This document shows positions 13,930 to 63,698 of a stretch of 63,965 bases of DNA, one piece after another. Location: UHGV virus genome UHGV-0122909; one strand, 5' to 3'. The notes beneath the pieces are model-generated. The model was not told the DNA's origin. It saw only the letters and a program-made list of their open reading frames with translations, and did not search any database. Position 1 is the first letter of the stretch. Each line of letters begins with the position of its first letter. The DNA comes from a virus. A program made the translations under genes and the position numbers.

Positions 13930-14403
13930 ATGGCAATCAGAGGCGTAAATAAGGTGATCATTATTGGTCGCCTTGGGCATGATCCAGAAATCAGATATTC
14001 ACCATCAGGAACGGCATTTGCAAACCTTACAGTTGCTACGTCAGAACAATGGCGTGATAAGCAAACTGGAGAGCAAAAGGAGCAGACGGAGTGGCACCGT
14101 GTGGTAATGAGCGGGAAACTGGCAGAAATTGCCAGCGAATATCTGCGAAAAGGCTCTGAGGTTTATCTTGAAGGCAAATTGCGGACAAGAAAATGGCAGG
14201 ATCAAAGCGGACAGGATCGGTTCACTACCGAAGTCATCGTGGGCGTTGGTGGAACCATGCAAATGCTTGGTGGCAAGCAAGGAGGAAATGAACAGTCTTC
14301 ACCTCAGCGAAATGACGGTCAGCAACAAAGACAGCAACCTCAGCAGCAAGGGAATCACAGCGAACCACCTATGAACTTCGACGATTCGGATATTCCGTTC
14401 TAG
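13930..14403 (+). CDS. ssb: Single-stranded DNA-binding protein
   Basis: OB-fold SSB N-terminus, Gly/Gln-rich linker and acidic C-terminal tail DDSDIPF. Confidence 0.9.
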
Positions 14404-33776: not shown

Positions 33777-35081
33777 ATGAGCGAGTATATAGAAATTGCC
33801 TATGCAGCGGCTACACATAGGCTGTGCTTTCTTACAGGCACTGGATTTTCAAAGGCTGTTTCTGATGATAAAGCCCCAAGTTGGCAATCTTTATTGGAGC
33901 AACTGTGCGGTTTATTGAAGGATGGTGACTCACTCAAAGAGGAATTATTTCCTGATGGAAAAGCAAAAGACCTTAGCCTTGAAGAAGCTGCTCAGGTTAT
34001 TGCACTAAAACTTATACTTTCGGGGAAAAATATTTACCAAGAGATTGAGAAAATCATAGCCTCAATCGAACTTGATCCATCAATTGAATATATTCAAGAC
34101 TTTTTCAAAGAAAACACATTTAAAGTAATTACGACAAATTATGACAAGTTAGCAGAAAAGCTGGCTGGAGAGAATCGAACTTGTACAATCACCCCCGGCC
34201 TGCCAATTCCAAAATATAATTGTGAGGTTAAAGTCTACCATGTTCACGGTTCTATAGACTCCCCATCAGACATGGTTGTTACTAGCGAGGATTATTTCAG
34301 ATTTATAAATGGTAATTCTTACTTTTCTAATAAACTAAGCACAGTTCTACATGAAAACACTATTGTTATCCTTGGCTATTCTCTAAGTGACGCGAACCTA
34401 AAGGCTATTATAAATGAATATAAGGTATTTTCACGGGACAACGTAATGTCCTCCAATATTTTCCTTGTTTCCCGAGGGGAACTATTGCAACCTATTAAAG
34501 ATTACTATTTTTCCTGCTATGGGGTTAGGGTTATAGATAAAACAGAGGTATCTGATTTCTTTAGAAAACTTAACGATAAAATTCCAGAAGCAAAAAAAAT
34601 AAAAGACAAATTGAGGCACTCAATCAAATCGGTAATAAAAAACGGAAGAGAGTATAAAATAGAGTTCTTGAAGCTAGAGGATTCTTTTTATCATATCATT
34701 TCCTCCATTTCATCATCTGGATATAGCTGGAATAATGAAAATGTATTAAATGTTTTTTGTAATATAATAGATAAAAAAATAGAGCTTACTAAAAAGCCTG
34801 GCGCATGGGAGCAGTATGAACACCTGGCAAAATGGCTTATTTATTTCGGTAGTTTATTTGAAGTAAAAGGAACCAATTTTGAGAAAAAATACATACATGC
34901 GGTTGAACACTCAATGACTTATATGAATAAACCTTACGAAACAGGCTACTCATGGCGAGCATATCTAGCCTGGAAAACAAAATGGCCTTCACTGACAGCA
35001 TCTAACCGCTCTCTTATTAAGAATGAGATGGAAGATATCCCGCTACAACAGATTCACGATATTGTATCTAAGTTTATATAG
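33777..35081 (+). CDS. SIR2-family (SIR2_2-type) protein, candidate NAD+-depleting defense effector
   Basis: 434 aa. N-terminal SIR2 motifs in canonical order: FLTGTGFSKA (GxG loop), VITTNYDKLAE (catalytic Asn), VYHVHGSI (catalytic His), ILGYSLSD. C-terminal ~200 aa helical region of unknown type. Visibly AT-rich. Occupies the res/mod position of P1. Confidence 0.8.
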   Translation: MSEYIEIAYAAATHRLCFLTGTGFSKAVSDDKAPSWQSLLEQLCGLLKDGDSLKEELFPDGKAKDLSLEEAAQVIALKLILSGKNIYQEIEKIIASIELDPSIEYIQDFFKENTFKVITTNYDKLAEKLAGENRTCTITPGLPIPKYNCEVKVYHVHGSIDSPSDMVVTSEDYFRFINGNSYFSNKLSTVLHENTIVILGYSLSDANLKAIINEYKVFSRDNVMSSNIFLVSRGELLQPIKDYYFSCYGVRVIDKTEVSDFFRKLNDKIPEAKKIKDKLRHSIKSVIKNGREYKIEFLKLEDSFYHIISSISSSGYSWNNENVLNVFCNIIDKKIELTKKPGAWEQYEHLAKWLIYFGSLFEVKGTNFEKKYIHAVEHSMTYMNKPYETGYSWRAYLAWKTKWPSLTASNRSLIKNEMEDIPLQQIHDIVSKFI

Positions 35082-42675: not shown

Positions 42676-45406
<2,731 letters not shown>

Positions 45407-46423: not shown

Positions 46424-46912
46424 GTGGCACAACGCGGTGTAAACAAAGTCATCCTGATTGGTACCCTGGGGCAAGACCCGGAGATCAGGTATATACCAAA
46501 TGGCGGCGCGGTCGGAAGACTCAGCATCGCAACGAATGAATCATGGCGCGACAAGCAAACGGGCCAACAGAAAGAGCAAACAGAATGGCATAAAGTCGTT
46601 TTGTTCGGAAAACTTGCTGAAATTGCGAGTGAGTATTTACGAAAAGGTTCTCAGGTCTACATCGAAGGGAAACTTAAAACCCGTAAGTGGACAGATGACG
46701 CCGGTGTAGAACGTTACACGACGGAAATTATCGTCAGCCAGGGCGGCACCATGCAAATGATCGGCGCTCGCCGTGACGATTCACAGTCCTCAAATGGCTG
46801 GGGGCAATCAAACCAACCTCAAAACCACCAGCAATACAGCGGTGGCGGTAAACCTCAGAGCAACGCCAATAACGAACCTCCAATGGACTTTGACGACGAT
46901 ATTCCGTTTTAG
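46424..46912 (+). CDS. ssb: Single-stranded DNA-binding protein
   Basis: 162 aa, GTG start, OB-fold N-terminus and acidic tail DFDDDIPF. Paralogous to the SSB in the lambdoid module. Confidence 0.95.
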
Positions 46913-46953
46913 AGTTAACTTGTGAGTTATTTGTAAAGAATCCATACGCAGGC

Positions 46954-46977
46954 CCCTGTTAATTCAGGGGTTTTTTG
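46954..46977 (+). terminator. Rho-independent terminator after ssb
   Basis: CCCCTGttaattcAGGGG followed by TTTTTTG. Confidence 0.65.
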
Positions 46978-47049
46978 TTTCTATCGTCGGAAAAAGTGTC
47001 TTGTATAAATTGGTGATTTTTCACATAAAGTGTACCTTGTAATTGTGTA

Positions 47050-48318
47050 ATGTTTATGGGGTGTGAGTGCATGGAAAAGAACTACAGAGTTACAACATTT
47101 GTCATGGATAGTGGCGAGCGCTATTGCATGGTAGTGGATCGTGCTTCTGGGCTTCCCATGTATTACCCCACTCTGTTTCTAACAACTCAAATCCGCAATA
47201 GAGAGGATGCTTTTTCAACGATGTTGGCGGCGGCTAACAACCTGGTTATGTTGTTACGCTTTGTAGAGAGTCGCGACATTGACCTTGAGCAGCGGTTTTT
47301 GACCAAAGACTTCTTCAAGCCACATGAGCTGGATGATCTGCGAGATTTTGCTCAGTGCAAACAAAGAAAGGGGCCATTAACTGTGTCCTCTACCTCTTGG
47401 TTGGCCGATGCGATGACCGATATCGTTGATAACGGGACACAGCATTCCCGGCTAACAACGTTTGCCAACTATTTACACTGGTATGCGATGCATATCTTAA
47501 AGACGACAGAACTGGAAGTTGTCGAAAAGATCAATGCTATGGCGGCGCAGATAAAGACGCGCCGACCATCTAAAAAGCGCAGAAACCACGACTTACAAGA
47601 CAGGTCATTGAGTGATGTTCAATTGGACGCGCTATTTGAAGTCATCCAGCCTAGATCAGAGTTAAACCCTTTCTCAATAGATGTGCAGCGCCGCAATCGG
47701 CTGATGATCTTACTTCTGTTTTATCTTGGCATCCGAGGTGGTGAATTATTAAATATAAGAATACAGGACATAGATTTTAGCGCTAACAGGATCCGTATCG
47801 TTAGGAGAGCAGATGAACAAGCTGACTCTAGAACCAATGAGCCTAATGCTAAAACTAGAGAACGGCTCTTACCGTTGGCTGAATCCTTAGCTCAAGAACT
47901 GCATAGTTATATCCTTCAAGATCGCCGGAAAGTCAGAAATGCGAAGAAAAATGACTATCTGTTTGTAACTTACAAGAGTGGACCAACTCTGGGAAATCCT
48001 ATCTCCAAAGGGGGATATCATAAAATTTTTTCCGTAGTCAGGTCTATATCACCGCAATTGTATGCAGCGACAGGACATTCGCTCCGCCACACTTGGAATC
48101 GCAAGTTTTCAGAAAGAATGGATGCCATGAATGAGCAAGTCAGCGAGGAACGCCAAGAGCAACTTCGTTCGTACTTAATGGGCTGGAGAGATGGCTCGGG
48201 AACCGCAGCGACTTACAACAAGCGTTTCATTCGGCAAAAAGGTTTTGAGGCCGCCTTGGCATTACAAGCAGGTAACGGCACTAGCTTGCCAGAGGACTTC
48301 AAGGATGACCATGAATAA
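47050..48318 (+). CDS. Tyrosine recombinase A (phage integrase family)
   Basis: 422 aa with LGIRGGELLNI (Arg), GHSLRHTW (His-x-x-Arg) and AATYNKRF (catalytic Tyr). Confidence 0.8.
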   Translation: MFMGCECMEKNYRVTTFVMDSGERYCMVVDRASGLPMYYPTLFLTTQIRNREDAFSTMLAAANNLVMLLRFVESRDIDLEQRFLTKDFFKPHELDDLRDFAQCKQRKGPLTVSSTSWLADAMTDIVDNGTQHSRLTTFANYLHWYAMHILKTTELEVVEKINAMAAQIKTRRPSKKRRNHDLQDRSLSDVQLDALFEVIQPRSELNPFSIDVQRRNRLMILLLFYLGIRGGELLNIRIQDIDFSANRIRIVRRADEQADSRTNEPNAKTRERLLPLAESLAQELHSYILQDRRKVRNAKKNDYLFVTYKSGPTLGNPISKGGYHKIFSVVRSISPQLYAATGHSLRHTWNRKFSERMDAMNEQVSEERQEQLRSYLMGWRDGSGTAATYNKRFIRQKGFEAALALQAGNGTSLPEDFKDDHE

Positions 48319-49843
48319 CCTCTTACTTGGGTTAGTACCAGAACGAATCCGTGCCAGGGCCAATGGCTACTCTTTTCTGTTGTATGACACATCGTGGACA
48401 TTGGATAGAAATATCACTATTAATCTTGCTGATATTCACCATTACTTGTCAGATGGGACGCTAGATGGCTGCCTGCGTACACTGGCGTTTTATGCATCCA
48501 ATCGTTCTTCTTCTCATACAAAAAATATTCTTGAACGGTTTCAGCACATGCTGCGTGAGACTGACGCGAGAGAAATTACTGATACGGTATTGATTAATTA
48601 TCGGTCGATGCTGTCGCCTGCAACAGAATGGTATCTAGCAACCATCCGTGGCTTTCTTCGATCCTGGCACGAACTGGGCTATCCCGGCATCAGTAAGGAG
48701 GTGAACCGCTTGCTAGATGGCTGGACGCTAAAGGGTAATCGTAAGGGGGATGCGGTTAAGCGCATGGATCCTCAAGAGGGGCCACTGACGGATAATGAGC
48801 TGACAGCGTTTAACGAGGGGGCTGTTCGGGCTTATGAAAAGAGCTTAATTACTATAGCTGAGTTGGCTATAGCACTTGGCACCAGTCATACAGGACGTCG
48901 TCCCATTCAGATCTCGCTGCTTCGTGTGGTCGATGTCCTTTGTGGTAAAAATGGAAAGGGAGAGCCCTTCTATGTGTTGAATGTGCCGCGAGCCAAGCAG
49001 CGCAGCAGCTCTTTCCGAATAAACTTCAAACCATTTGCAATATCACTGGAACTATGGGCAATCCTGAGTGCTCAGGCAAGAAATGCGATTGCGCAGGTTG
49101 AAAATCGTTTGGGGTTTGAATTGCAGGAAGATGACCGGCAGCAAATCCCTCTTTTTCCTGATCTTGATGTGTTAGATGCCGTCCAATCTCCTTATGAATT
49201 CCGCCAACTGCATGCTACCGACAAACTCCACATTCCCGCCGCAGAGATAACCGACACCCTCCAATACATCGTAGAAAAGTCCGACATCCGGTCGGAACGT
49301 ACCGGTGAGCTATTACATATCAATGCTCGTCGTTTTCGTTATACCACAGGCACACGAGCTGCCCGGGAAGGCTTTGGCGAGCTGGTGATTGCGGAACTGC
49401 TTGACCACGCGGACACCCAAAACGCAGGCGTTTACATCAAGAATATCCCCGAGCATGTGAAAAAGCTTGATGAGGCGGTTGGCTTCCAATTAGCACCATA
49501 CGCTCAGGCCTTTGTCGGGGCACTTGTCGATTCAGAGAGAGACGCGCATCGAGGTAACGACCCTACCAGTCGTATTCGGACCGAAATGGGTCAGGGTGTT
49601 GGTACTTGTGGAGAACATGGCTTTTGTGGTGCCAATGTTCCTATTCCTTGCTACACCTGCATGCATTTCCAGCCTTGGCTGGACGGCCCACATGAAGATG
49701 TCTATCAAGGACTGCTCAACGAACGTGAACGGGTGAAAGAGATAACTGGCGACATCCAGATTGCTGCCGTACTTGATCGCAGTATTATCGCGCTGGCAGA
49801 TGTGATCATGCGTTGTGCAAAACGTCGTGAAGAGCTTAGTTAA
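48305..49843 (+). CDS. Tyrosine recombinase B
   Basis: Probable start MTMNNLLLG at 48305 overlapping the upstream stop. C-terminal RRFRYTTGTRAAREG...LLDHAD...GVYIKN is recombinase-like. Confidence 0.65.
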   Translation: MTMNNLLLGLVPERIRARANGYSFLLYDTSWTLDRNITINLADIHHYLSDGTLDGCLRTLAFYASNRSSSHTKNILERFQHMLRETDAREITDTVLINYRSMLSPATEWYLATIRGFLRSWHELGYPGISKEVNRLLDGWTLKGNRKGDAVKRMDPQEGPLTDNELTAFNEGAVRAYEKSLITIAELAIALGTSHTGRRPIQISLLRVVDVLCGKNGKGEPFYVLNVPRAKQRSSSFRINFKPFAISLELWAILSAQARNAIAQVENRLGFELQEDDRQQIPLFPDLDVLDAVQSPYEFRQLHATDKLHIPAAEITDTLQYIVEKSDIRSERTGELLHINARRFRYTTGTRAAREGFGELVIAELLDHADTQNAGVYIKNIPEHVKKLDEAVGFQLAPYAQAFVGALVDSERDAHRGNDPTSRIRTEMGQGVGTCGEHGFCGANVPIPCYTCMHFQPWLDGPHEDVYQGLLNERERVKEITGDIQIAAVLDRSIIALADVIMRCAKRREELS

Positions 49844-49859
49844 CAGGGAGCAATAACCA

Positions 49860-51893
49860 ATGGCTGAGATTTTCCTGTTTAAGCCAAAGGCTACGCTGAC
49901 AGCAGCAGAAAACCTTGAAGCATTCATATCCCAGTGCCGAGATCAATTGACTGTATTCGGCTCTGATCTCACTTGGGAAGATCCTGTTTGGCCAAACATA
50001 ACTGTATTTGCCAAGTTGGGCATTATTACGAGAAAACCCATACTGGAAGAGACGCAAGACCCTGCTTTCATTGATTTTGCCAAAGCCTATTTCCGTTACC
50101 AGCAGGGGCATAGCCTCTCTAGGGCAAAGAATGAAAGTAAAGCCCTCCGTGCGGTTGAGGCGGCTTTGCTTCAAGTAAATGGAAACGCAAATATTGATGG
50201 CCTGTCGATTTCTGTGCTGGATGAAGCAGCTGAATTGGCAAAGCATTACTACTCCGATGGCTCCGCATATCATTGTGGCCGTGAGATTGAGCGGCTGGCT
50301 AAGTTTGTAGCTGAAAACCAGCTTGTATCAAGTGCTGTACAAAATTGGGTCAATCCAATTAAACGTGCAGAGGATAAGAACAAAACGAGCAGAAAGGCGA
50401 AGAAAAATAGGGAAGATAAACTTCCGAGTGATATTGCTCTTAATGCGTTGGCGGAAATTTTTGCCAACGACCCAATTCATGAGCGAGACATATTTACAAC
50501 ATCGGTTTTTGCCATGTTGATGTCGGCACCTTCACGTATTACTGAGGTGTTAGCACTGCCTGTGGATTGCGAGGTTTTTGAAACGGATCGTGAAGGGATA
50601 GAACGATATGGTTGGCGTTTTTTTGCGGGGAAAGGCTATGAGGGTGATATCAAATGGATACCCACCGTGATGGTCGGTATAGCTAAGACAGCCGTAGCTA
50701 GAGCTAGAGTGCTCTCTGAAAATGCACGACAACTGGCCAAGTGGATCGAGAAACACCCGAATAAGTTTTACCGCCATGCTAACTGTCCCAGTGTAGCCGA
50801 TGATGAGCCATTGACGATGAAGCAGGTTTGTATGGCGCTCGGTTTTGCACATTACTCTAAAAAGACGTGCAGGTCGTGTCTTGGTAATCGAGGTTTAGCT
50901 AAAGAGGATGGTGTACATACTCTAAATAGCCTGTGGCAGCACACAATGGCGCGTTTACCGGATGACTTTCCGTGGTTTGATAAAGACAAGGGAATTAGGT
51001 ACAGCAATGCCTTGTTTGTACTGAACGTAAATCAGTTCCACGGGAACAGAGGATGCATACCAGTTGAGTTACATAAGCCAACCAATAATTTCTTCAACAG
51101 TGATCTGACGCCTCGTCTGTCCTTGAAAGGAAAACATGCCAGTATCTTTGATCGCCATGGTTACCATGCTGTAAACGGAGAGCCGGTGAAATTAACCTCA
51201 CATCAGGCTCGACACCTGCTCAACACCATTATCCAGCGCGGTGGCCTGTCAAACTTGGAAATTGCCAAGTGGTCGGGGCGGGCAGATGTGAAACAGAATC
51301 GAACTTACAACCACATGACTGAATACGAACTGGTTGGCATTGCTGAACGCCTTGATCCCACAACAGCGCTATTTGGGCCTGCTGGCGAGGTGGCAAAGCA
51401 TCTGCCCGTGACTATGCAGGAGTTCAATACCTTAGAGCATGCCGCAGTCCATGTGACGGAGTATGGCTACTGTGTGCATGATTACACCATGAGTCCTTGT
51501 GAGAAATTCCGAGATTGCGTCAATTGTACCGAACAGGTTTGCATCAAAGGCGATGATGCTGAAAAGTTGGATCGCATTAAGATACGTCTGGAGAAATTAG
51601 AGCGACTGTTTTTTCTTGCTGACGCAGCAGTGGAAAGTGGTGAGATAGGAACTGATCGCTGGTATCAGTACCACAAGAAAACTGTTACCCGGCTTCGTGA
51701 ACTAGTGGCTATTTTAGAGAATCCAGACATTGAAAATGGTGTCCAGATTAAGCTCCGGGGCAATGATTTCAGCCAGCTTCGCCGTGTTGTCGCAAAGACG
51801 TCTATTGTGGCCATCGAGCAAAAAGGCAAAGAAAGTGAAGAAGCTGTGATGTTAGATGATTTGACAACTTTGTTAGGAGGTGGCCTTGGCTAA
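49860..51893 (+). CDS. Tyrosine recombinase C
   Basis: 677 aa with LTSHQARHLLNT (His-x-x-Arg-His) and NRTYNHMT (Tyr). Confidence 0.7.
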   Translation: MAEIFLFKPKATLTAAENLEAFISQCRDQLTVFGSDLTWEDPVWPNITVFAKLGIITRKPILEETQDPAFIDFAKAYFRYQQGHSLSRAKNESKALRAVEAALLQVNGNANIDGLSISVLDEAAELAKHYYSDGSAYHCGREIERLAKFVAENQLVSSAVQNWVNPIKRAEDKNKTSRKAKKNREDKLPSDIALNALAEIFANDPIHERDIFTTSVFAMLMSAPSRITEVLALPVDCEVFETDREGIERYGWRFFAGKGYEGDIKWIPTVMVGIAKTAVARARVLSENARQLAKWIEKHPNKFYRHANCPSVADDEPLTMKQVCMALGFAHYSKKTCRSCLGNRGLAKEDGVHTLNSLWQHTMARLPDDFPWFDKDKGIRYSNALFVLNVNQFHGNRGCIPVELHKPTNNFFNSDLTPRLSLKGKHASIFDRHGYHAVNGEPVKLTSHQARHLLNTIIQRGGLSNLEIAKWSGRADVKQNRTYNHMTEYELVGIAERLDPTTALFGPAGEVAKHLPVTMQEFNTLEHAAVHVTEYGYCVHDYTMSPCEKFRDCVNCTEQVCIKGDDAEKLDRIKIRLEKLERLFFLADAAVESGEIGTDRWYQYHKKTVTRLRELVAILENPDIENGVQIKLRGNDFSQLRRVVAKTSIVAIEQKGKESEEAVMLDDLTTLLGGGLG

Positions 51894-52305
51894 GCATCTG
51901 GACAATAGAGACATTAATGCCATCGTAAATCTAATTCGAGGATGGAAGGAACCAAAACTGTCCTGGTCAGCAATTTGTGAGGCGGCAGAACCATTGGTCG
52001 GAAAGTTGCCGTCAAGACAGTCCCTTAATGCACATGAGGCAATAGTGACTGCCTATCAAACAAAGAAAGAGGCGCTTAAAGGCCGTGGCCCCAAAAATCC
52101 GCGTCCAGCTAGTTTGAACATTGCAGCCGCGAGGATTGTGAATCTTGAAAGCGAAATCGAAGAGCTTAAGGAAGAGAACCGGAGGTACAAACAACAGTTT
52201 GTGATCTGGCAATACAATGCATACAAATATGGAATGACAGAACATCAACTTAATGCGCAGCTGACAAAGATTGACCGTGAGCGCTCTGATGGAGAAAGAA
52301 GATAG
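51880..52305 (+). CDS. Small coiled-coil accessory protein (TnpC-like position)
   Basis: 141 aa overlapping the recombinase C stop by 14 nt. C-terminal coiled coil LESEIEELKEENRRYKQQF. Confidence 0.4.
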   Translation: MALAKHLDNRDINAIVNLIRGWKEPKLSWSAICEAAEPLVGKLPSRQSLNAHEAIVTAYQTKKEALKGRGPKNPRPASLNIAAARIVNLESEIEELKEENRRYKQQFVIWQYNAYKYGMTEHQLNAQLTKIDRERSDGERR

Positions 52306-52380
52306 TTGCTGAGTACGATATCGAGGGTACATTTCTCTGTGTAGGGGTAGTTATTTACAAAAAAATAGGAGAATAATTAA

Positions 52381-55300
52381 ATGGTCAAACCAAACTGGGA
52401 TAACTTTAAAGCTAAATTTAGTGAGAATCCTCAAGGTAATTTTGAGTGGTTTTGCTACTTGTTGTTCTGTCAAGAATTCAAAATGCCCGCAGGTATATTT
52501 AGATATAAGAATCAATCTGGTATCGAAACTAATCCAATAACCAAAGATAATGAAATTATCGGTTGGCAATCTAAATTCTATGACACAAAATTGTCGGATA
52601 ACAAAGCTGATCTTATAGAAATGATTGAGAAAAGCAAAAAGGCTTATCCAGGATTAAGTAAAATCATTTTCTATACTAATCAAGAGTGGGGGCAGGGGAG
52701 AAAGTCCCATGAACCTGAAGGCGATAAGAACGCTGATAATTATTTGGAAACTGTCGGAAATAGTAACGATCCCAAAATAAAAATTGAAGTTGATCAGAAA
52801 GCATATGAGTCGGGTATCGAAATAGTATGGAGAGTTGCTAGTTTTTTTGAATCACCGTTTGTAATAGTTGAGAATGAAAAGATTGCTAAACATTTCTTCT
52901 CCCTTAATGAAAGCATCTTTGATTTATTAGAAGAAAAGCGCAAGCACACAGAAAATGTTTTATATGAAATTCAAACCAATATAGAGTTCAAAGACAGAAG
53001 TATTGAAATTGACAGACGACATTGTATAGAACTTCTACATGAGAATCTAGTTCAGAAAAAAATTGTCATCGTCAGCGGAGAAGGTGGGGTTGGAAAAACA
53101 GCAGTTATCAAAAAAATTTATGAAGCAGAAAAACAATACACTCCTTTCTATGTCTTTAAGGCTAGCGAGTTTAAAAAGGACAGTATTAATGAGCTATTCG
53201 GTGCGCATGGCTTAGACGATTTCTCTAATGCTCATCAAGACGAATTACGTAAAGTCATAGTCGTAGATTCTGCTGAAAAGCTTTTAGAACTGACCAATAT
53301 CGATCCTTTTAAAGAATTCCTGACTGTTTTAATAAAGGATAAATGGCAGGTTGTTTTCACAACCCGTAACAACTACTTGGCAGATCTGAACTATGCTTTC
53401 ATAGATATTTATAATATAACTCCTGAAAACTTAGTAATAAAGAACCTTGAACGCGGCGAGCTAATAGAGTTATCTGATAACAATGGATTTAGCCTTCCTC
53501 AAGATGTTCGATTATTAGAACTAATCAAAAATCCATTTTATCTAAGTGAATATTTGAGGTTCTATACCGGTGAAAGCATCGATTATGTGAGCTTCAAAGA
53601 AAAGCTTTGGAATAAGATTATTGTCAAAAATAAACCTTCTCGGGAGCAGTGTTTCTTAGCGACTGCTTTTCAGCGGGCTAGTGAGGGCCAATTTTTTGTC
53701 TCCCCGGCATGTGATACTGGAATTTTAGATGAGTTAGTTAAAGACGGAATTGTCGGCTATGAAGCTGCTGGTTACTTCATTACACATGATATATACGAGG
53801 AATGGGCATTAGAAAAGAAAATTTCTGTCGATTATATCCGTAAAGCGAACAATAACGAGTTCTTCGAAAAAATAGGAGAATCACTTCCTGTTCGCCGTAG
53901 TTTTCGGAATTGGATATCTGAACGATTGCTTTTAGATGACCAGTCCATAAAGCCTTTTATCGCAGAAATAGTCTGTGGAGAAGGAATATCAAATTTTTGG
54001 AAAGACGAGTTATGGGTAGCTGTCCTTCTTTCCGATAATTCAAGCATATTTTTTAATTACTTTAAAAGATATTTACTTAGTAGTGACCAGAATCTATTAA
54101 AAAGACTTACTTTCTTATTGAGGCTTGCTTGCAAGGACGTTGATTACGATCTGCTTAAACAGTTAGGTGTAAGTAATTCAGATCTGCTTTCCATTAAATA
54201 TGTTCTTACTAAGCCTAAGGGAACTGGTTGGCAGAGTGTGATCCAATTTATCTATGAAAATTTAGATGAAATAGGGATCAGAAATATTAATTTTATACTT
54301 CCTGTGATTCAGGAGTGGAATCAAAGAAACAAAGTGGGTGAAACGACTCGATTATCTAGTTTGATAGCCCTAAAATATTATCAATGGACTGTAGATGAGG
54401 ATGTCTATTTATCCGGAAGGGATAATGAGAAAAATATTCTGCATACGATTCTTCATGGGGCGGCCATGATTAAACCTGAAATGGAAGAGGTTTTAGTTAA
54501 GGTTCTTAAAAATAGGTGGAACGAGCACGGTACCCCATATTTCGACCTTATGACCTTAATCCTTACTGACTTAGATTCATATCCGGTTTGGGCATCTCTC
54601 CCGGAATATGTTCTACAATTGGCAGATCTGTTCTGGTATCGGCCACTTAAAGAAACAGGCGAACGTTATCACAGTATGGATATTGAAGATGAGTTCGGTC
54701 TATTTAGGTCTCATCACGACTATTATCCAGAAAGTCCATATCAGACTCCTATATATTGGTTACTACAATCACAGTTCAAAAAAACAATAGACTTTATTCT
54801 TGATTTTACGAACAAGACAACGATATGTTTTGCCCACTCCCATTTTGCTAAAAACGAAATTGAAGAAGTCGATGTCTTTATTGAAGAAGGAAAGTTTATA
54901 AAGCAATATATATGCAATCGTCTGTGGTGCTCATATCGAGGAACACAGGTCTCTACCTACTTACTTTCATCAATTCATATGGCATTGGAAAAATTTTTTC
55001 TTGAGAATTTTAAAAATGCAGACTCGAAAGTGTTGGAAAGTTGGCTTCTTTTCTTGTTAAGAAATACCAAGTCAGCTTCTATTTCTGCAGTAGTTACGAG
55101 TATTGTACTTGCATTCCCTGAGAAGACATTCAATGTAGCTAAAGTACTATTCCAAACAAAGGATTTCTTCCGTTTTGATATGAATCGAATGGTTCTAGAC
55201 AGAACACATAAAAGTTCATTAATCTCCCTCAGGGATGGCTTTGGCGGTACAGATTACAGAAACTCTTTGCACGAAGAAGATAGAATTAAAGCTTGCGATG

Positions 55301-57144
55301 ATGTGCATAGAAATACTTATCTTGAAAATCTTGCCTTGCATTATCAAATTTTCAGGAGTGAAAATGTAACGGAGAAAGATGTCATTGAAAGGCAACAAGT
55401 GCTCTGGGGTATTTTCGACAAATACTATAATCAGCTTCCAGATGAAGCTCAAGAAACTGAAGCCGATAAGACGTGGAGGCTCTGCTTGGCAAGAATGGAT
55501 CGGCGAAAGATGAAAATAACTACCAAGGAGAAAGATGAAGGGATTGAGATATCATTCAATCCTGAGATTGACCCTAAACTAAAGCAATATAGTGAGGAAG
55601 CAATAAAGAAAAACTCCGAGCATATGAAGTATGTAACGCTGAAACTATGGGCAAGCTATAAAAGAGAAAAGGATGAACGTTATAAGAATTATGGAATGTA
55701 TGAGGACAATCCGCAAATTGCTTTACAAGAGACCAAAGAAATAATAAAAAAGCTTAATGAGGAAGGGGGTGAAGATTTCAGACTATTAAATGGTAATATA
55801 CCAGCAGACGTTTGTTCTGTATTACTGTTAGATTACTTTAATCAGTTGAATAATGAAGAGAGAGAATATTGTAAAGATATTGTTCTAGCATATTCTCAAC
55901 TTCCGTTGAAGGAAGGCTATAATTATCAGGTACAAGATGGGACAACCTCGGCAATTTCAGCCTTACCCGTGATTTATCATAATTATCCAATGGAAAGGGA
56001 GACTATAAAAACAATATTACTTTTGACACTGTTTAATGACCACTCTATTGGAATGGCAGGTGGGCGCTACTCAGTATTTCCTAGTATGGTGATTCATAAA
56101 TTATGGCTAGACTATTTTGATGATATGCAGTCTCTATTGTTTGGTTTTTTGATTTTAAAGCCAAAGTATGTAATTCTTTCAAGAAAAATCATTCATGAAA
56201 GTTATCGTCAAGTAGACTATGACATTAAAAAAATAAATATTAATAAGGTGTTTTTAAATAACTATAAGCATTGCATATCAAATGTCATCGATAATAAAAT
56301 ATCTATAGATGATTTGGGAAGTATAGATATAGTTGATCTACATATTTTGAACACAGCTTTCCAATTAATTCCAGTTGATACTGTTAATATTGAACATAAG
56401 CAATTGGTTTCCTTAATTGTTAAAAGATTTTCTACAAGCCTATTGTCAAGTGTTCGAGAAGATAGAGTTGATTACGCTCTTCGGCAGTCTTTCTTGGAAA
56501 GATTTGCCTACTTTACGCTTCATGCGCCCGTGAGCGATATTCCCGATTATATAAAACCTTTTCTTGATGGTTTCAACGGTTCAGAGCCTATTTCAGAGTT
56601 ATTTAAAAAATTTATTCTCGTCGAAGATAGATTAAATACTTACGCCAAATTTTGGAAGGTTTGGGATTTGTTTTTTGATAAAGTGGTTACTTTGTGCAAG
56701 GATGGAGATAGGTATTGGTATGTAGATAAAATTATAAAAAGTTACCTTTTTGCTGAATCTCCATGGAAAGAAAACTCTAATGGTTGGCACACATTTAAAG
56801 ATAGCAATAGTCAATTCTTTTGCGATGTATCTAGGACTATGGGCCATTGCCCTTCAACTTTATATTCTCTTGCCAAATCTTTGAATAACATTGCCAGTTG
56901 CTATCTTAATCAAGGTATAACCTGGCTTTCAGAAATGTTGTCGGTTAATAAAAAGCTATGGGAAAAGAAATTGGAAAATGATACTGTTTATTTTTTAGAA
57001 TGTTTGGTTAGGCGGTATATTAACACTGAGCGTGAGCGAATTAGACGAACCAAACAGTTGAAAGAAGAGGTCTTAGTAATATTGGATTTTTTGGTAGAGA
57101 AAGGATCTGTTGTTGGTTATATGTCACGGGAAAATATTCTGTGA
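52381..57144 (+). CDS. Large STAND-type P-loop NTPase with N-terminal nuclease-like domain and ~1300-aa helical C-terminus (Avs-like)
   Basis: 1587 aa. Walker A IVIVSGEGGVGKTAV, Walker B KVIVVDSAEKL, then VVFTTRNNY (the hhhTTR STAND/NB-ARC signature). N-terminal ~220 aa contains ...DNEIIGWQSKFY..., a possible PD-(D/E)xK-like core. Strongly AT-rich. Confidence 0.7.
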   Translation: MVKPNWDNFKAKFSENPQGNFEWFCYLLFCQEFKMPAGIFRYKNQSGIETNPITKDNEIIGWQSKFYDTKLSDNKADLIEMIEKSKKAYPGLSKIIFYTNQEWGQGRKSHEPEGDKNADNYLETVGNSNDPKIKIEVDQKAYESGIEIVWRVASFFESPFVIVENEKIAKHFFSLNESIFDLLEEKRKHTENVLYEIQTNIEFKDRSIEIDRRHCIELLHENLVQKKIVIVSGEGGVGKTAVIKKIYEAEKQYTPFYVFKASEFKKDSINELFGAHGLDDFSNAHQDELRKVIVVDSAEKLLELTNIDPFKEFLTVLIKDKWQVVFTTRNNYLADLNYAFIDIYNITPENLVIKNLERGELIELSDNNGFSLPQDVRLLELIKNPFYLSEYLRFYTGESIDYVSFKEKLWNKIIVKNKPSREQCFLATAFQRASEGQFFVSPACDTGILDELVKDGIVGYEAAGYFITHDIYEEWALEKKISVDYIRKANNNEFFEKIGESLPVRRSFRNWISERLLLDDQSIKPFIAEIVCGEGISNFWKDELWVAVLLSDNSSIFFNYFKRYLLSSDQNLLKRLTFLLRLACKDVDYDLLKQLGVSNSDLLSIKYVLTKPKGTGWQSVIQFIYENLDEIGIRNINFILPVIQEWNQRNKVGETTRLSSLIALKYYQWTVDEDVYLSGRDNEKNILHTILHGAAMIKPEMEEVLVKVLKNRWNEHGTPYFDLMTLILTDLDSYPVWASLPEYVLQLADLFWYRPLKETGERYHSMDIEDEFGLFRSHHDYYPESPYQTPIYWLLQSQFKKTIDFILDFTNKTTICFAHSHFAKNEIEEVDVFIEEGKFIKQYICNRLWCSYRGTQVSTYLLSSIHMALEKFFLENFKNADSKVLESWLLFLLRNTKSASISAVVTSIVLAFPEKTFNVAKVLFQTKDFFRFDMNRMVLDRTHKSSLISLRDGFGGTDYRNSLHEEDRIKACDDVHRNTYLENLALHYQIFRSENVTEKDVIERQQVLWGIFDKYYNQLPDEAQETEADKTWRLCLARMDRRKMKITTKEKDEGIEISFNPEIDPKLKQYSEEAIKKNSEHMKYVTLKLWASYKREKDERYKNYGMYEDNPQIALQETKEIIKKLNEEGGEDFRLLNGNIPADVCSVLLLDYFNQLNNEEREYCKDIVLAYSQLPLKEGYNYQVQDGTTSAISALPVIYHNYPMERETIKTILLLTLFNDHSIGMAGGRYSVFPSMVIHKLWLDYFDDMQSLLFGFLILKPKYVILSRKIIHESYRQVDYDIKKININKVFLNNYKHCISNVIDNKISIDDLGSIDIVDLHILNTAFQLIPVDTVNIEHKQLVSLIVKRFSTSLLSSVREDRVDYALRQSFLERFAYFTLHAPVSDIPDYIKPFLDGFNGSEPISELFKKFILVEDRLNTYAKFWKVWDLFFDKVVTLCKDGDRYWYVDKIIKSYLFAESPWKENSNGWHTFKDSNSQFFCDVSRTMGHCPSTLYSLAKSLNNIASCYLNQGITWLSEMLSVNKKLWEKKLENDTVYFLECLVRRYINTERERIRRTKQLKEEVLVILDFLVEKGSVVGYMSRENIL

Positions 57145-57187
57145 TGTAGTTGAAAATAATAATTTTAATGAGAGCTTTTCCAATTTA

Positions 57188-57212
57188 GGCTCCAGGGATT
57201 GGAGCCTTTTTA
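57188..57212 (+). terminator. Rho-independent terminator after the NTPase gene
   Basis: GGCTCCAgggatTGGAGCC followed by TTTTTATT. Confidence 0.65.
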
Positions 57213-57239
57213 TTATCGAAAAGATTAATATCTTATAAG

Positions 57240-57458
57240 TCAATCAGTAAAACGCAGCAAAGCTCGTTGCTCTTGAATGTTCACTCCGTGATAAATTCTT
57301 TGATTACCACATAAATAACAAGAACAAGCACAAGGGGTGCAGTAAATTTTCCCTACAACTTTTTCAGTTTTAGCCAACGCAATTCGATATGTTTTTCTCT
57401 TAGATTTTAACCGAGATATATGATGACGACGCCATGCCCGATTTCTAACCATTTCCAT
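57240..57458 (-). CDS. Small basic Cys-cluster protein (hypothetical)
   Basis: 72 aa with an Arg/Lys-rich N-terminus and CTPCACSCYLCGN cluster. Confidence 0.3.
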   Translation of the reverse strand: MEMVRNRAWRRHHISRLKSKRKTYRIALAKTEKVVGKIYCTPCACSCYLCGNQRIYHGVNIQEQRALLRFTD

Positions 57459-57682
57459 TCACTCCAATTTTCTACCGCGGTGTTATACCGCGCCCGTATC
57501 AATCTTTGGAGTTCGATATCGATCTGACCTTTCATGAATACCTCGGAATTTATCAATAAAGTGAGTGCTATATCATAGCTTATGGGATGAAAGTTTGATA
57601 TTTAGCACTTTTCAGCTTTAGGTAAAGCTGTCCTCAATAAAGCTAATTTCTTGTTTATTAATGGAATTTCTATGTAGAAGTG

Positions 57683-58504
57683 TTAGAAATCCTGTTTTAC
57701 TTTATCCATCGTTAAAACTTTACTTATTATATAAGGATCATAATTTCTTATACTCATAAGGCAATTTATCAAATTGGAAACGTGGCTATCATCAGGAATA
57801 AGTATATATTTAATATCATCGAAAGAAAAACCAATGCCAAATTCAGAGAATTTTTTACTTAAGACGGCCTTCTGGTTAGGTTCCACCACTCGCTCTAAAT
57901 TTAGGCTAGGCCATAAATCGCCAACAAACGGATGCGGTACATATCTCCATTCTTTTTCGTCAGCGTAGATATAATTCTCAATGGTTTTTTCGTTCGTCCT
58001 TTCTAATTTCCCTTTATAATTTTTCATATAGCGTAATAAATTATAAAGGTCAGCGTACTCTTCTTTAAGGCTTTCAAAATACTTACGCTCTTTATTATCA
58101 AGGATATGCCTTTTCGACCATAGCGGAATTAACGCATCCTTTAGTTTTCTAATTCTTTTATTATACTTTGAAAATAATTCACTGCCTTGATTCATGTATA
58201 GAACGGGATGGAGATCATTTTTCTCAGCCCATTCTTTTGTTAACCCAAATCCAAATTCACCATATTTTCCACTATGATCTTTAATCTGAGAAAGCTTGAT
58301 GTCACAGAATGAAACCATTGGTACTGCGAAATTTCTTCTTCCTTTTACTCCGACTATGCGTTCACGGGCAAGAAATGGTTTAAAATAGAGTTCTGTTAAA
58401 ATGCTATAGAATGCCTCTTCATTTTTAGTAAAGTGAAACAACGTTGTTGGATGTAAACTATTAACTGCTTGTATAACTGTTTCTTGGTTTTCTATAGCAC
58501 TCAT
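57683..58504 (-). CDS. Hypothetical AT-rich protein, possibly abortive-infection-like
   Basis: 273 aa, convergent with the NTPase, strongly AT-rich. N-terminal TLFHFTK resembles some Abi-family proteins, but this is unverified. Confidence 0.4.
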   Translation of the reverse strand: MSAIENQETVIQAVNSLHPTTLFHFTKNEEAFYSILTELYFKPFLARERIVGVKGRRNFAVPMVSFCDIKLSQIKDHSGKYGEFGFGLTKEWAEKNDLHPVLYMNQGSELFSKYNKRIRKLKDALIPLWSKRHILDNKERKYFESLKEEYADLYNLLRYMKNYKGKLERTNEKTIENYIYADEKEWRYVPHPFVGDLWPSLNLERVVEPNQKAVLSKKFSEFGIGFSFDDIKYILIPDDSHVSNLINCLMSIRNYDPYIISKVLTMDKVKQDF

Positions 58505-58910
58505 ATATTAACTGTTCCATAGTGTAAAACCTGACTTAGCAAAGGTTATCATACTAGTCTTTGTACTGTAAGCACACTTGGTTTAATTCCACGCACTTTT
58601 TGAGATTTCCGGTTTTTTGATCTCTTACCAAAATCTATGCCAGATTGAATCAAAGGTCCGAGCTGGGTCACCAAAAAAAGTAAAATTATGCACTTTGATA
58701 GATTATATTTTAACTAAATTCTTTACAGTTAAATCATTTCTTATGCCTTAGTTTCTGATAAAAAAGGTTTTTTTTCACGATTTATAAGTATCAGGTTATG
58801 TGAACCGTTCTAACGAATAGCCCCCCCCGAGATATTGCTTTCGCTGGTGGGAAAACATTCCTGACCCACCTGAAGGCGCAATACATCAGGTTTTAAGCAG
58901 AGGAAAGACT

Positions 58911-59588
58911 ATGAATAACATGACAACGAAAGAGCTTTTGACGGCACTTCCAAAATACAAAAGCCATAAAACAGTTCGCGCCTCAAAAATCAAAGATATC
59001 GAAATTATCGCCCTAATGGATGTGGTCCTTTTTTGCAACATCGAAGTCGTTGAGCCAGAAGGGGTAAAAGTCCATGTTGATAAAATATTTTTGCAAAAAC
59101 ACCGACCAGAAATTGGCGGATATCTGGTCGCTTATGAGGACGGATCTCTGTCCTATTCACCAGAAAAAACATTTGAAGAAGGCTTTAGTCGGACTAACGA
59201 CTTCTTCGAAAATGGGGTATCGCTCAGCATTGAAGGTCACAATGGGGTGACATTCATTACAGCCAGGGACGTAACTATTTCTGCTGGCGGTATCGCTACT
59301 CTACAAGAAGAAATCGACCTTGAAGCAGCCGACTTTTCTGACGCGCTGATGTGGCTGAAGGATGGCAAGAAAGTTGCCCGACGCGGGTGGAACGGCGAAA
59401 ACCAATTCTGCTGGCTGGTTCCTGAAGGACAGTACCCGGCACGAATGGAAGCCATTAAGGGATATTTCCCCGGCGACCTCGTTCCGTATGGTGCTTATTT
59501 CGCCTTAAAAAATGCACAAGGTGTAGTTGTTCCGTGGGTTCCTTCTGTAGGCGACTTACTGGCATGTGACTGGTTTGTAGTGGAGTGA
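58911..59588 (+). CDS. Hypothetical protein with DUF2829-like (Tad2-like) C-terminal domain
   Basis: 225 aa. C-terminal ~80 aa LMWLKDGKKVARRGWNG...PWVPSVGDLLACDWFVV fits my recollection of DUF2829 (GW...PW.PS..DLLA.DW). Confidence 0.4.
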   Translation: MNNMTTKELLTALPKYKSHKTVRASKIKDIEIIALMDVVLFCNIEVVEPEGVKVHVDKIFLQKHRPEIGGYLVAYEDGSLSYSPEKTFEEGFSRTNDFFENGVSLSIEGHNGVTFITARDVTISAGGIATLQEEIDLEAADFSDALMWLKDGKKVARRGWNGENQFCWLVPEGQYPARMEAIKGYFPGDLVPYGAYFALKNAQGVVVPWVPSVGDLLACDWFVVE

Positions 59589-60412: not shown

Positions 60413-60721
60413 TCAATATACGATCTGGTCTACATGATCACCAAAATCATCGTCGTCGTCCTCATCGCCACCATCTACTGCTGGCCAATCAACAAACCAG
60501 CCAGCGTAAAGATGCAGCGTTCGGAGAACATCACTTGCGGGGGCATCAAGGGTGTTAACGAATCCCATATAGCTATTGGGATTTGCTCCAGCTATGGCTT
60601 CAGCGATCATGTCCTCGGTAATGTCACCGGAGATAATGCTTAAACGCCCGGAAACTTCTTCATTATCATCAAATTCGATAATGGCATCTCCACCTAATGG
60701 CGCTGCGATTTTAATCTGCAT
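60413..60721 (-). CDS. Small acidic protein (iddB position)
   Basis: 102 aa with a very acidic C-terminus (GGDEDDDDDFGDH), overlapping the upstream 995-aa gene stop. Confidence 0.4.
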   Translation of the reverse strand: MQIKIAAPLGGDAIIEFDDNEEVSGRLSIISGDITEDMIAEAIAGANPNSYMGFVNTLDAPASDVLRTLHLYAGWFVDWPAVDGGDEDDDDDFGDHVDQIVY

Positions 60722-63698
60722 TATTTAGCTCCTTTGCCACACCTAATAACAGTTCCAGCAATCCGTCACCATTCATCAGTGATGCGGCAGCGGCCTCTTT
60801 GTCATGATACAACTGAAGAGCCATAGAGAATACTTCCGTTGCTGACGTTTTGGAAATAGTCGGTGATTTCTGCCGAATTTTCCCGGTGTTACTTACTGAG
60901 GCTGGCGGGTATACCTTCGCCATATAAATATTACTCAATCGAGATCTGAAGCACCATTCAGGCTTGCCACGCCCACCGATATTGACGAAAGATGGCTTAT
61001 CCCCTTCAACATTGGCCTTCAGGAATGACCGGGCTTTCTCTAACAAACCAGGGTTACTGTACTCAAGATGATGACCCAGCTCGTGCCACAGTGCACTTGC
61101 ATTTTCATCGTTCAAATTGACAGCAACAACACCATTAAGATTTGCATATGCCCTTCCCTGGTGGTGAACTACCTTTGATAAGGTCGATATTTTCCCGCCG
61201 GTCAGGCGATAAATATCAGCAAGTTCCTTGCGCAGGTCTATCCCACCATTCTGTCCAGCGCGGACTTCTTCCACTTCTTCTGTGATAAAAGAGTCGGCCC
61301 ACTCAAGAGCTTTTTCTTCAGATACGGATGAGTTTGCGATCGCACTGTTCATGGCAGATAACACTTTCTCGTGGACCGAACCCATACTTCGCTGATTCAT
61401 TTGCCAGCGTGTCTGCGGGTTATATGAGAATCGCTTAAGTAGTTGGTCAAGATGCTCAAGTTCTTCTTCACTGACATACTTTTTAGCCTCACCAATAATG
61501 CCAGGGAGAATATTGCCGTTAGGATTAAACGCTCGCGAAAGGAAGAGTTTCAGCGCCCCCATGCCCTCCGATGCTTCAATATCACCAATAACCCGGTTAA
61601 CAATGGCCGCACTCTTCGGATTAGCATCCGCCAACGCTCTGGCTACAATTTGCAGGGACGATACGACCTCACGCTGCATATCCGTCCTGATCTCATCAAT
61701 AAACTCTGGCGTTATGCCGTGCTCTTTAAGGATATCCCTGCCTTCCGCCGTTACCCCATCGATATCACCGACATGTTTATTAACCCGACTTTGCAATGCC
61801 TTAAATGCCTTCAGAATTCCACGGGCATCATCCGCTTTACCAACGGCCTTCCTGAATGCTGGCAAGAAGTCTGAGTTAACCTCATTTTGTTGATCGGCCC
61901 ACTGAATGGAGGCTTCTTTCATCTCGTCCAGAGTCAGATCACCCAACGCGGTATGGTCTGTGAATATGAGCGACAACCTCTGAACCATTTCTGCCAATGG
62001 TGATGCCGAATGCGCCGCGCTAAGGAATGCTTTCACCCTGGTTGGGCGAATGGAAAACCAGTCAATAGCTGGTGGCATATCTCCGTTTTTTATCGCCTGC
62101 GCTATCTCGTCAAAGCCATCGCGCCCAAGGGAGGATGCGTGATTTAACAAGCCGCGAAGTAACGAATTGCTGATACCGAATAATCGGCACCATTTTTTCA
62201 CGTCGGCAACAGGCATTCGAACAAAATGCGCAAGCACTTGTACAAGCTGTTCATCCTGGGGATCTGTGCGGGAAAGCAGCCTGATCAGATGAATAATGTC
62301 TTTGATGCCGGATGCCCGATGTAATAGCAAACTGGTATACGGAGCAACACCGTTGTAACTACCGCCGGAAACGGACTCGAAAAGACCGCCGGATATCCCT
62401 TGCATGCCTTCGTTTTCCAGTTCCTGAGACACCTGGCGAAGGATATCCTGTAACGACACATCGCCGCCGCCAAACATATCCCCCAGCGCCTGGCCCTGGT
62501 GCTGTAACTCATCATTGATACGTTGAGCCATCAACTTAAAGGCGGTGGCCATACGCTTCGCGCTACGGTTATTCGCGACGATGAACAACGCGAGTGCTTT
62601 CACTTCCGGGGCCGTTTCGCTGAACATATCCCCCTGAGCAATAACATCGGTAATATGCTGGCCTGACTCCTTCGATTGCCTTACCAGGTCTACCGCATCT
62701 TTCAATGCCGCCAGCGCCTTTTTATCGAGGCTATCCGCTGTCTCAATGCCATCAACAATAGTTGTCACAGCCTGCTTGTGCGCTTCTCCTGATAAAGCCT
62801 GCATCTGGACAAAATCATTGGCTGCCGCATTAAGCGCCGTCAGAACATTACGCATATCCGGATCAGGTTCTTCTGCAACCATCCTTACCAGGCGCGCATC
62901 CTTATATGCCTTGGCAAAGATCGCGTTTTGTATACGGTCTACAAGTTGCCGTGTTGGTCGCCCATCTTCAGTTACAAGGCCAGCCGCCTGTGTGGCACCA
63001 ACTTGCGTCATAAATCCGCGAATAAACGCGTCATTACTGCGGCTAAGCAGATCTCCGCTTTCTGACGGGTTAAAAAGCGCCATCATCGCCGGTGTTATGC
63101 TGTCGGCATCAACAAAAGCTTTTTCACTGGCTGCCATTTCCTGAAGATCAGAAATATTTGAGTCCTTGGCAAACTGAACGCGGTCAACCTTAGTTAACCG
63201 GCGGCGCACCAGTACCGGAGCCGTCATTGATTCAACCTTTTCAGGAGGTATGCCGAATTCGGTCGCATGTTCAATCAGGTACTCACGATACCGATCCGCA
63301 TTGCCGTCCTGATAGGCTTTGATGATCCCCATGGTCCGTCCATTACCTGACTCAACGGCATTGTCCTCACCAATTATCGGCGCGCCATGGCTGGATAAAC
63401 CGGAATCAGTAAGCTGAGCAGGCCGCAAATCTTTGGATATCTGGTTAACCTGAAGAAGGCTGGATGCGCGGGTCCGGTCGCGCGGTTGAAGTTCCTGGGG
63501 ATAGTCAGGATTAATTTTCCCATCCAGAGTATTGGATACCAAAAGAGCTGAGGCATCGACGATATCAAACGCTGTTTTTACCTCGTCTCCCTTCGCTGTC
63601 ACCACATACGAAACCCGCCCATAATCGGGCAGGTTCTTTAGCAGCTCGATCAGCGTTTCTATGCTGGTGGCCATTACCACCTGATCGCTTAAGCTCAT
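60711..63698 (-). CDS. ddrB: DdrB-like large protein with HExxH metalloprotease-like motif
   Basis: 995 aa with ALWHELGHHLEYSNPG. Size and position fit P1 ddrB. Symbol is tentative. Confidence 0.5.
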   Translation of the reverse strand: MSLSDQVVMATSIETLIELLKNLPDYGRVSYVVTAKGDEVKTAFDIVDASALLVSNTLDGKINPDYPQELQPRDRTRASSLLQVNQISKDLRPAQLTDSGLSSHGAPIIGEDNAVESGNGRTMGIIKAYQDGNADRYREYLIEHATEFGIPPEKVESMTAPVLVRRRLTKVDRVQFAKDSNISDLQEMAASEKAFVDADSITPAMMALFNPSESGDLLSRSNDAFIRGFMTQVGATQAAGLVTEDGRPTRQLVDRIQNAIFAKAYKDARLVRMVAEEPDPDMRNVLTALNAAANDFVQMQALSGEAHKQAVTTIVDGIETADSLDKKALAALKDAVDLVRQSKESGQHITDVIAQGDMFSETAPEVKALALFIVANNRSAKRMATAFKLMAQRINDELQHQGQALGDMFGGGDVSLQDILRQVSQELENEGMQGISGGLFESVSGGSYNGVAPYTSLLLHRASGIKDIIHLIRLLSRTDPQDEQLVQVLAHFVRMPVADVKKWCRLFGISNSLLRGLLNHASSLGRDGFDEIAQAIKNGDMPPAIDWFSIRPTRVKAFLSAAHSASPLAEMVQRLSLIFTDHTALGDLTLDEMKEASIQWADQQNEVNSDFLPAFRKAVGKADDARGILKAFKALQSRVNKHVGDIDGVTAEGRDILKEHGITPEFIDEIRTDMQREVVSSLQIVARALADANPKSAAIVNRVIGDIEASEGMGALKLFLSRAFNPNGNILPGIIGEAKKYVSEEELEHLDQLLKRFSYNPQTRWQMNQRSMGSVHEKVLSAMNSAIANSSVSEEKALEWADSFITEEVEEVRAGQNGGIDLRKELADIYRLTGGKISTLSKVVHHQGRAYANLNGVVAVNLNDENASALWHELGHHLEYSNPGLLEKARSFLKANVEGDKPSFVNIGGRGKPEWCFRSRLSNIYMAKVYPPASVSNTGKIRQKSPTISKTSATEVFSMALQLYHDKEAAAASLMNGDGLLELLLGVAKELNNAD

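Follow-up and report, generated by a model that had tools for sequence, protein, structure and literature searches.

Introduction

Avs proteins of types 1-4 recognize the large terminase and portal folds of phages through direct binding (PMC12803255). Avs1-3 resemble Avs4 in having an N-terminal effector, a STAND NTPase and a long C-terminal sensor, and in being activated by tetramerization; they differ in the trigger, as Avs1-3 sense the large terminase subunit, whereas Avs4 senses the portal. For Avs4, portals are described as activators, and the tetramers formed switch on the N-terminal nucleases (PMC11897194). Both Avs3 and Avs4 are monomers when they bind the phage protein, and tetramerization follows (PMC13017515); oligomerization of Avs4 requires ATP but not ATP hydrolysis (PMC12236752). 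N-terminal nucleases have been described for Avs1-4 (PMC11897194, PMC12236752), and homologues of Avs4 that bear other effectors are triggered by portals too (bioRxiv 10.1101/2025.11.14.688446). Portal sensing is shared by Avs11, which PMC12803255 describes as activated by the phage portal without having sequence or structural similarity to Avs4.

Avs4 is a textbook case of prokaryotic pattern-recognition immunity. The primary Avs studies are those of Gao and colleagues from 2020 and 2022, and the structure of the Escherichia coli protein EcAvs4 (PDB 8DGF, chain A) is reportedly from their 2022 article in Science (doi 10.1126/science.abm4096). What we state on the Avs4 mechanism draws on later papers that cite the primary study.

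The second point of comparison is the GInt class of genomic islands, which combine a ginABCD operon with cargo genes and have direct repeats that are short and imperfect; for several of them, insertion at the 3′ terminus of ssb was reported, with the product of the gene unaltered (PMC5385486, PMC10214605). Some catalytic residues of GinC are reported to be missing, and the protein is often annotated as hypothetical (PMC5385486). Excision as a circle, for which all four genes are required, is a trait of the class. In E. coli, the yjcB-ssb interval is integration hotspot 39 for defence islands, and the island described there carries Detocs and dGTPase systems (PMC11728103).

Here we analyse a large gene on a P1-like phage-plasmid which encodes a natural allele of EcAvs4 and which lies on a GInt-like island inserted at the stop codon of ssb.

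Results

The gene encodes Avs4

The DNA analysed, referred to as the window, is a stretch of 63,965 nt that forms part of a P1-like phage-plasmid. On its plus strand, an uninterrupted open reading frame of 1587 aa runs from ATG to TGA (52381-57144), with the Shine-Dalgarno sequence AGGAG (52367-52371, + strand) 9 nt 5′ of the start codon. A first-pass annotation made from the sequence had compared the layout of the product to Avs-type proteins with effector, NTPase and sensor parts. This comparison was correct, and the protein can be named as Avs4, the AVAST type 4 anti-phage nuclease. Avs4 was the sole family matched in PADLOC, residues 1-1587 aligning with model positions 1-1570 of 1570 at 2361.8 bits; no other Avs model was matched in this search. 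Likewise, the NCBIfam equivalog NF041815 ('AVAST type 4 anti-phage nuclease Avs4') aligned with residues 5-1587 over model positions 1-1579 of 1579 and scored 2066.8 bits, above its curated cut-off of 1500 bits.

A search of all PDB sequences matched one chain, 8DGF_A ('ATP-binding protein Avs4', 1587 aa), from end to end (1-1587 versus 1-1587). The two proteins are identical at 1573 of 1587 positions (99.1%). The 14 substitutions, read off the alignments with the window residue given first, are N345K, E348G, V671I, N714K, V1000A, G1010D, Q1173K, I1315M, I1317K, Q1341K, M1519I, F1538Y, T1549N and E1562Q. None of them falls in D56/Q63/K65, Walker A, Walker B or the TTR motif, and residues 1-344 are identical throughout. 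The window protein shares with EcAvs4 its length, its three-part succession from nuclease through STAND NTPase to sensor, and its catalytic and nucleotide-binding motifs; it differs from EcAvs4 in the 14 substitutions and in being encoded on a P1-like phage-plasmid rather than on a chromosome. Twelve of the substitutions are located in the sensor region, which is 99% identical to that of 8DGF_A, so this copy could recognize a range of phages other than that known for the published allele.

The nucleotide sequence of the gene is 100% identical to that of RefSeq genes annotated as avs4 with the product 'AVAST type 4 anti-phage nuclease Avs4' (WP_000240574.1). At ≥ 95% identity it was found in 359 of 5426 complete E. 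coli genomes, at 357 chromosomal and 25 plasmid places. A comparison of the avs4 DNA with 50,697 deposited phage genomes gave no match; several P1-like plasmids do carry the gene.

Domains, motifs and expression signals

The central part of the protein is a STAND NTPase. Its Walker A motif GEGGVGKT (aa 233-240; 53077-53100), its Walker B motif VIVVDSAE (aa 292-299; 53254-53277) and the sequence VVFTTR, which represents the hhhTTR motif of STAND NTPases (aa 324-329; 53350-53367; all + strand), are present as the first-pass annotation had listed them for a protein of the STAND/NB-ARC type. Pfam matches in this part (nSTAND1, nSTAND3 and NB-ARC over aa 212-361) were all below threshold, and further weak sub-threshold matches of the protein included RsgA and AAA families.

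The N-terminal effector domain comprises aa 1 to about 205 (52381-52995, + strand), and its designation as a nuclease derives exclusively from the identity to 8DGF_A and from the family name. We take the N-terminal effector of EcAvs4 to be a cell-killing nuclease of the PD-(D/E)xK or Mrr-like kind. Within the domain, D56 is followed by Q63-S-K65 (ITKDNEIIGWQSKFY), a D...QxK arrangement of the kind found in Mrr-type PD-(D/E)xK nucleases. The possible PD-(D/E)xK-like motif that had been suggested for the N-terminus is present, in a segment (aa 1-344) without any difference from 8DGF_A. Going by the motif, D56 (52546-52548) and Q63-x-K65 (52567-52575, + strand) are candidate catalytic residues. 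An AlphaFold2 single-sequence model of aa 1-210 was unusable (mean pLDDT 32.5).

The C-terminal sensor region extends over about aa 401-1587 (53581-57141, + strand). It is spanned by the Avs4 family models and by 8DGF_A, and its portal-sensing role is taken from the literature. By its likeness to EcAvs4, the sensor region of the window protein would bind the phage portal. When aa 1-205 and aa 401-1587 were searched separately against Pfam with E values up to 10, no family was found, and domain-level naming from Pfam is consequently impossible for both parts. This also explains why the first-pass annotation could not assign the flanking domains to a family: its statement holds for Pfam and fails for the whole-protein Avs4 models, which do match.

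The avs4 reading frame has a G+C content of 34.9%, compared with 47.7% in window positions 1-52000, in agreement with its earlier description as strongly AT-rich. The terminator that had been ascribed to the gene was located as well. An intrinsic-terminator-like structure on the + strand (57187-57217) consists of a G+C-rich hairpin of 9 bp (AGGCTCCAGGGATTGGAGCCT then TTTTATTATC, 57187-57207), 43 nt past the stop codon, and a T-run. Scanning the 76 nt that precede avs4 for promoters revealed no consensus σ70 site, and the counts obtained around this gap were not above those of shuffled sequence. Expression of avs4 would presumably come from read-through out of the recombinase operon described below, or else from its own promoter, which would be weak.

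A GInt-like island with avs4 as cargo

That the gene is island cargo, as had been proposed, was borne out by the exact insertion site and the natural empty site detailed in the next section. The recombinase-bearing island has a GInt-like layout and occupies 11,901 bp (46911-58811, + strand). Four genes in the same direction, abutting or overlapping, fill 47050-52305, and the first two match integrase models. In the ginA position, a tyrosine recombinase gene (47050-48318, + strand; RefSeq annotation, with the RefSeq start equivalent to 47071) encodes a product with a Pfam Phage_integrase match (2.3e-15) and Xer-like NCBIfam matches below their cut-offs. The ginB position is taken by a site-specific integrase gene (48305-49843, + strand, RefSeq coordinates), whose product scored 677.4 bits against NCBIfam NF041502 (integrase_1; cut-off 350). 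The 677-aa protein in the ginC position (49860-51893, + strand) is named 'recombinase' in some GenBank records and matched nothing in Pfam, NCBIfam or PADLOC. The same three collections gave no family for the small 139-aa protein in the ginD position (51886-52305, + strand), whose gene ends 76 nt 5′ of avs4. This lack of family matches fits the published descriptions of GinC and GinD.

Together with avs4, an AbiGi-family gene on the opposite strand (57683-58504, − strand), convergent with avs4, is the sole cargo of the 11.9-kb island in the chromosome, in the IncF plasmid and in the P1-like plasmids. Its product matched AbiGi in Pfam (1e-24) and PADLOC (1.6e-44) and reached only 45 bits against the NCBIfam AbiGI model, for which the cut-off is 300, indicating a distant AbiGi relative. 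No AbiGii partner was seen in the window, either in the list of open reading frames or by Pfam and PADLOC.

As in the GInt elements of Bardaji et al. (2017; PMC5385486), the cargo begins right behind a small fourth gene, with 76 nt separating the stop codon of the 139-aa gene from avs4; the direct repeats are short and imperfect, and insertion at the 3′ terminus of ssb leaves SSB unchanged. The four genes at the 5′ end of the island would be the counterpart of the GInt operon, which has three genes for tyrosine-recombinase-like proteins and a small fourth one. Differences concern the repeats, which are reported to be 10-17 nt long in GInt compared with a 7-nt core, CCGTTYT, in the avs4 island; the cargo, which here consists of defence genes; and the target replicons, which here include phage-plasmids and conjugative plasmids. 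We therefore call the island GInt-like in organization and behaviour, the likeness to the Pseudomonas elements being one of layout and target.

A search of the island for repeats yielded only two weak pairs of imperfect inverted repeats near its ends, 46923-46941/58718-58736 (84% complementary) and 47020-47042/58782-58804 (74%). The recombinases may bind there, or the matches may be due to chance.

Three kinds of replicon carry the island at the end of ssb

Integration is targeted to the stop codon of ssb in the P1-like backbone (46424-46912, + strand). Comparison of junctions placed the left core repeat, CCGTTTT, at 46904-46910, where it comprises the last ssb bases including the first base of the stop codon; the right core repeat, CCGTTCT, forms the right end of the island (58805-58811; both + strand). 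In every carrier the left junction follows ...ATTCCGTT(C/T)T, again including the first stop-codon base, and the island ends on the right with ...GAACCGTTCT. The island supplies AG, whereby the ssb stop codon becomes TAG and the C-terminus of SSB, ...DDDIPF, is unaltered. The integration site ATTCCGTTYT encodes the conserved tip of SSB (...IPF) and includes the initial base of the stop codon.

When positions 46911-58811 were removed from the window in silico, the rejoined sequence matched the P1-like plasmid NZ_LR890336.1 at 239 of 239 positions (44981-45219). This natural empty site indicates a clean, site-specific insertion. The expected junction of the circular island would read ...GAACCGTTCT joined to AGAGTTAAC..., and the expected restored ssb site ...ATTCCGTTTT joined to AACGAATAGCC....

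The island is 99.94% identical to a segment beside ssb1 in the chromosome of E. coli M217, between uvrA-ssb and yjcB-pdeC, and an island with the same ends lies beside the ssb gene of an IncFIA conjugative plasmid. The M217 location is hotspot 39, with the gene order uvrA-ssb, island, yjcB-pdeC; the island of the hotspot study (PMC11728103) differs from that of M217 in being without Avs4. In p20-20P1, a second P1-like carrier, the island is found in the commoner P1 flank (CCGTTCT followed by GAATGTGTAAAA...) and within a backbone only 97.5% identical to the window. Since flank and backbone differ from those of the window, at least two contexts of insertion exist among P1-like elements. That chromosomes, conjugative plasmids and P1-like phage-plasmids all carry the island at the ssb stop codon is accounted for by the conservation among them of the DNA encoding the C-terminal tip of SSB.

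The window contains a second ssb gene (13930-14403, + strand; 157 aa, ending DDSDIPF), which adjoins an open reading frame of 235 aa (13222-13929). The 3′ end of this ssb, GATATTCCGTTCTAG, has the same core as the island target and is unoccupied; judged by this core, it could offer the island another attachment site on this replicon.

The P1-like carrier

The 11 kb that precede the island encode a DarB-like N-6 methylase, the portal, a head-processing protein, a lysozyme and SSB, and are 95-99% identical in hundreds of P1-like plasmids. The corresponding region of the near-collinear p20-20P1 includes genes for the C1 repressor, the terminase, a Cre-like recombinase, phd/doc and the late-promoter activator. 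The portal protein of the carrier, Prt (42685-44394, + strand), has the same length as Prt of P1 (PDB 9UMS, chain C) and differs from it at four residues; a single residue sets it apart from the portal encoded by a P1-like plasmid that lacks the island. This near-constancy gives no sign of a portal change tied to the carriage of Avs4. One replicon harbours both a portal gene and a portal sensor gene (avs4, 52381-57144).

Other genes of the carrier drew our attention. A 434-aa protein with a SIR2_2 domain (33777-35081, + strand; Pfam 2.2e-23; PADLOC PDC-S25 6.4e-24; also ThsA-like and LmuA-like matches) is encoded within an AT-rich segment of 1.4 kb (34% G+C), at a place where an island-free P1-like relative has type III restriction-modification genes; these features make it a candidate for a single-gene defence system that was swapped in. 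Directly to the right of the island, a backbone gene with a Tad2-like (Thoeris anti-defence 2) domain (58911-59588, + strand; Pfam 1.6e-22; DUF2829 in related plasmids) places a gene of the counter-defence type next to the defence island. Further on, the opposite strand encodes a 995-aa protein with an N-terminal ddrB-like domain of the ParB superfamily (60711-63698, − strand; Pfam 1.8e-39), which belongs to the P1-like backbone and is annotated as hypothetical.

Discussion

We consider it virtually certain that the gene encodes Avs4, a single-protein STAND anti-phage receptor, and that it is a natural allele of EcAvs4 carried by a GInt-like island at the ssb stop codon. The mechanism described in the literature is taken to apply to the window protein because of its 99.1% identity to 8DGF_A. 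On infection by a tailed phage, the long C-terminal repeat domain would bind a monomer of the phage portal; with ATP in the central NTPase, the protein would then assemble into a tetramer that brings the N-terminal nuclease domains together and thereby switches the nuclease on. The active nuclease would degrade DNA, resulting in abortive infection. Judging from its sequence, the window allele is probably active.

Three other readings were weighed. That the gene might specify a different STAND NTPase, be it an Avs protein of another type, a member of a new STAND family or an ATPase with a housekeeping role, would be in keeping with the weak, sub-threshold Pfam matches (nSTAND1, nSTAND3, NB-ARC, RsgA and AAA); this reading is refuted by the full-length Avs4 models above cut-off, the near-identity to 8DGF_A and the failure of any other Avs family to match in PADLOC, and we reject all three variants. 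In particular, membership of a known housekeeping ATPase family, which the first-pass annotation had named as the result that would overturn its proposal, is ruled out by PADLOC Avs4, NF041815 and 8DGF_A. Decay or silencing of the copy has a different motive: the P1-like carrier makes a portal of its own (42685-44394), so that Avs4 would have to be inactive to be tolerated, and avs4 had no match in the 50,697 deposited phage genomes. We hold this to be highly improbable, as the frame is intact, all motifs are present, nothing points to decay, and the common chromosomal allele of many complete genomes has exactly this DNA sequence (100% identity).

The remaining reading joins Avs4 and the AbiGi-family gene into one two-gene defence system in which Avs4 does not act alone. 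The two genes do travel together as the sole island cargo across chromosome, IncF plasmid and P1-like plasmids, and AbiGi is normally partnered by AbiGii, for which no gene was seen here. However, the genes are convergent, avs4 has its own terminator, and the AbiGi-family protein scores 45 against the NCBIfam AbiGI cut-off of 300. Moreover, the literature treats Avs4 as a single-protein sensor-effector whose reconstitution takes no more than a portal (PMC12803255, PMC11897194, bioRxiv 10.1101/2025.11.14.688446). We regard the two-gene system as very unlikely and retain the single-protein receptor.

The Avs4 family and the EcAvs4 protein are already characterized genetically, biochemically and structurally, so the gene is a known one, and the same is true of the whole arrangement, EcAvs4 on a described kind of island at a recognized hotspot. 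The avs4 gene itself adds nothing new, its allele being common in E. coli. Of modest value is the illustration, by one recombinase island, of how a defence gene spreads over a chromosome, a conjugative plasmid and a P1-like phage-plasmid.

The only part of the locus with a potential for novelty is the coexistence of Avs4 with the carrier's own portal. A phage-plasmid needs a portal protein for virion production, which raises the question of how a phage can carry a sensor for a protein fold of its own making. It is a speculative and rather improbable proposal that Prt is naturally invisible to Avs4, that the element encodes or times something by which Avs4 is kept quiet during the carrier's own lytic growth, or that Avs4 cripples induction, reducing the phage-plasmid to a mere plasmid. 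If the first were true, Prt would be a defined negative example for finding out what the sensor reads; either of the other two would be a new way for a phage-borne pattern receptor to manage self and non-self.
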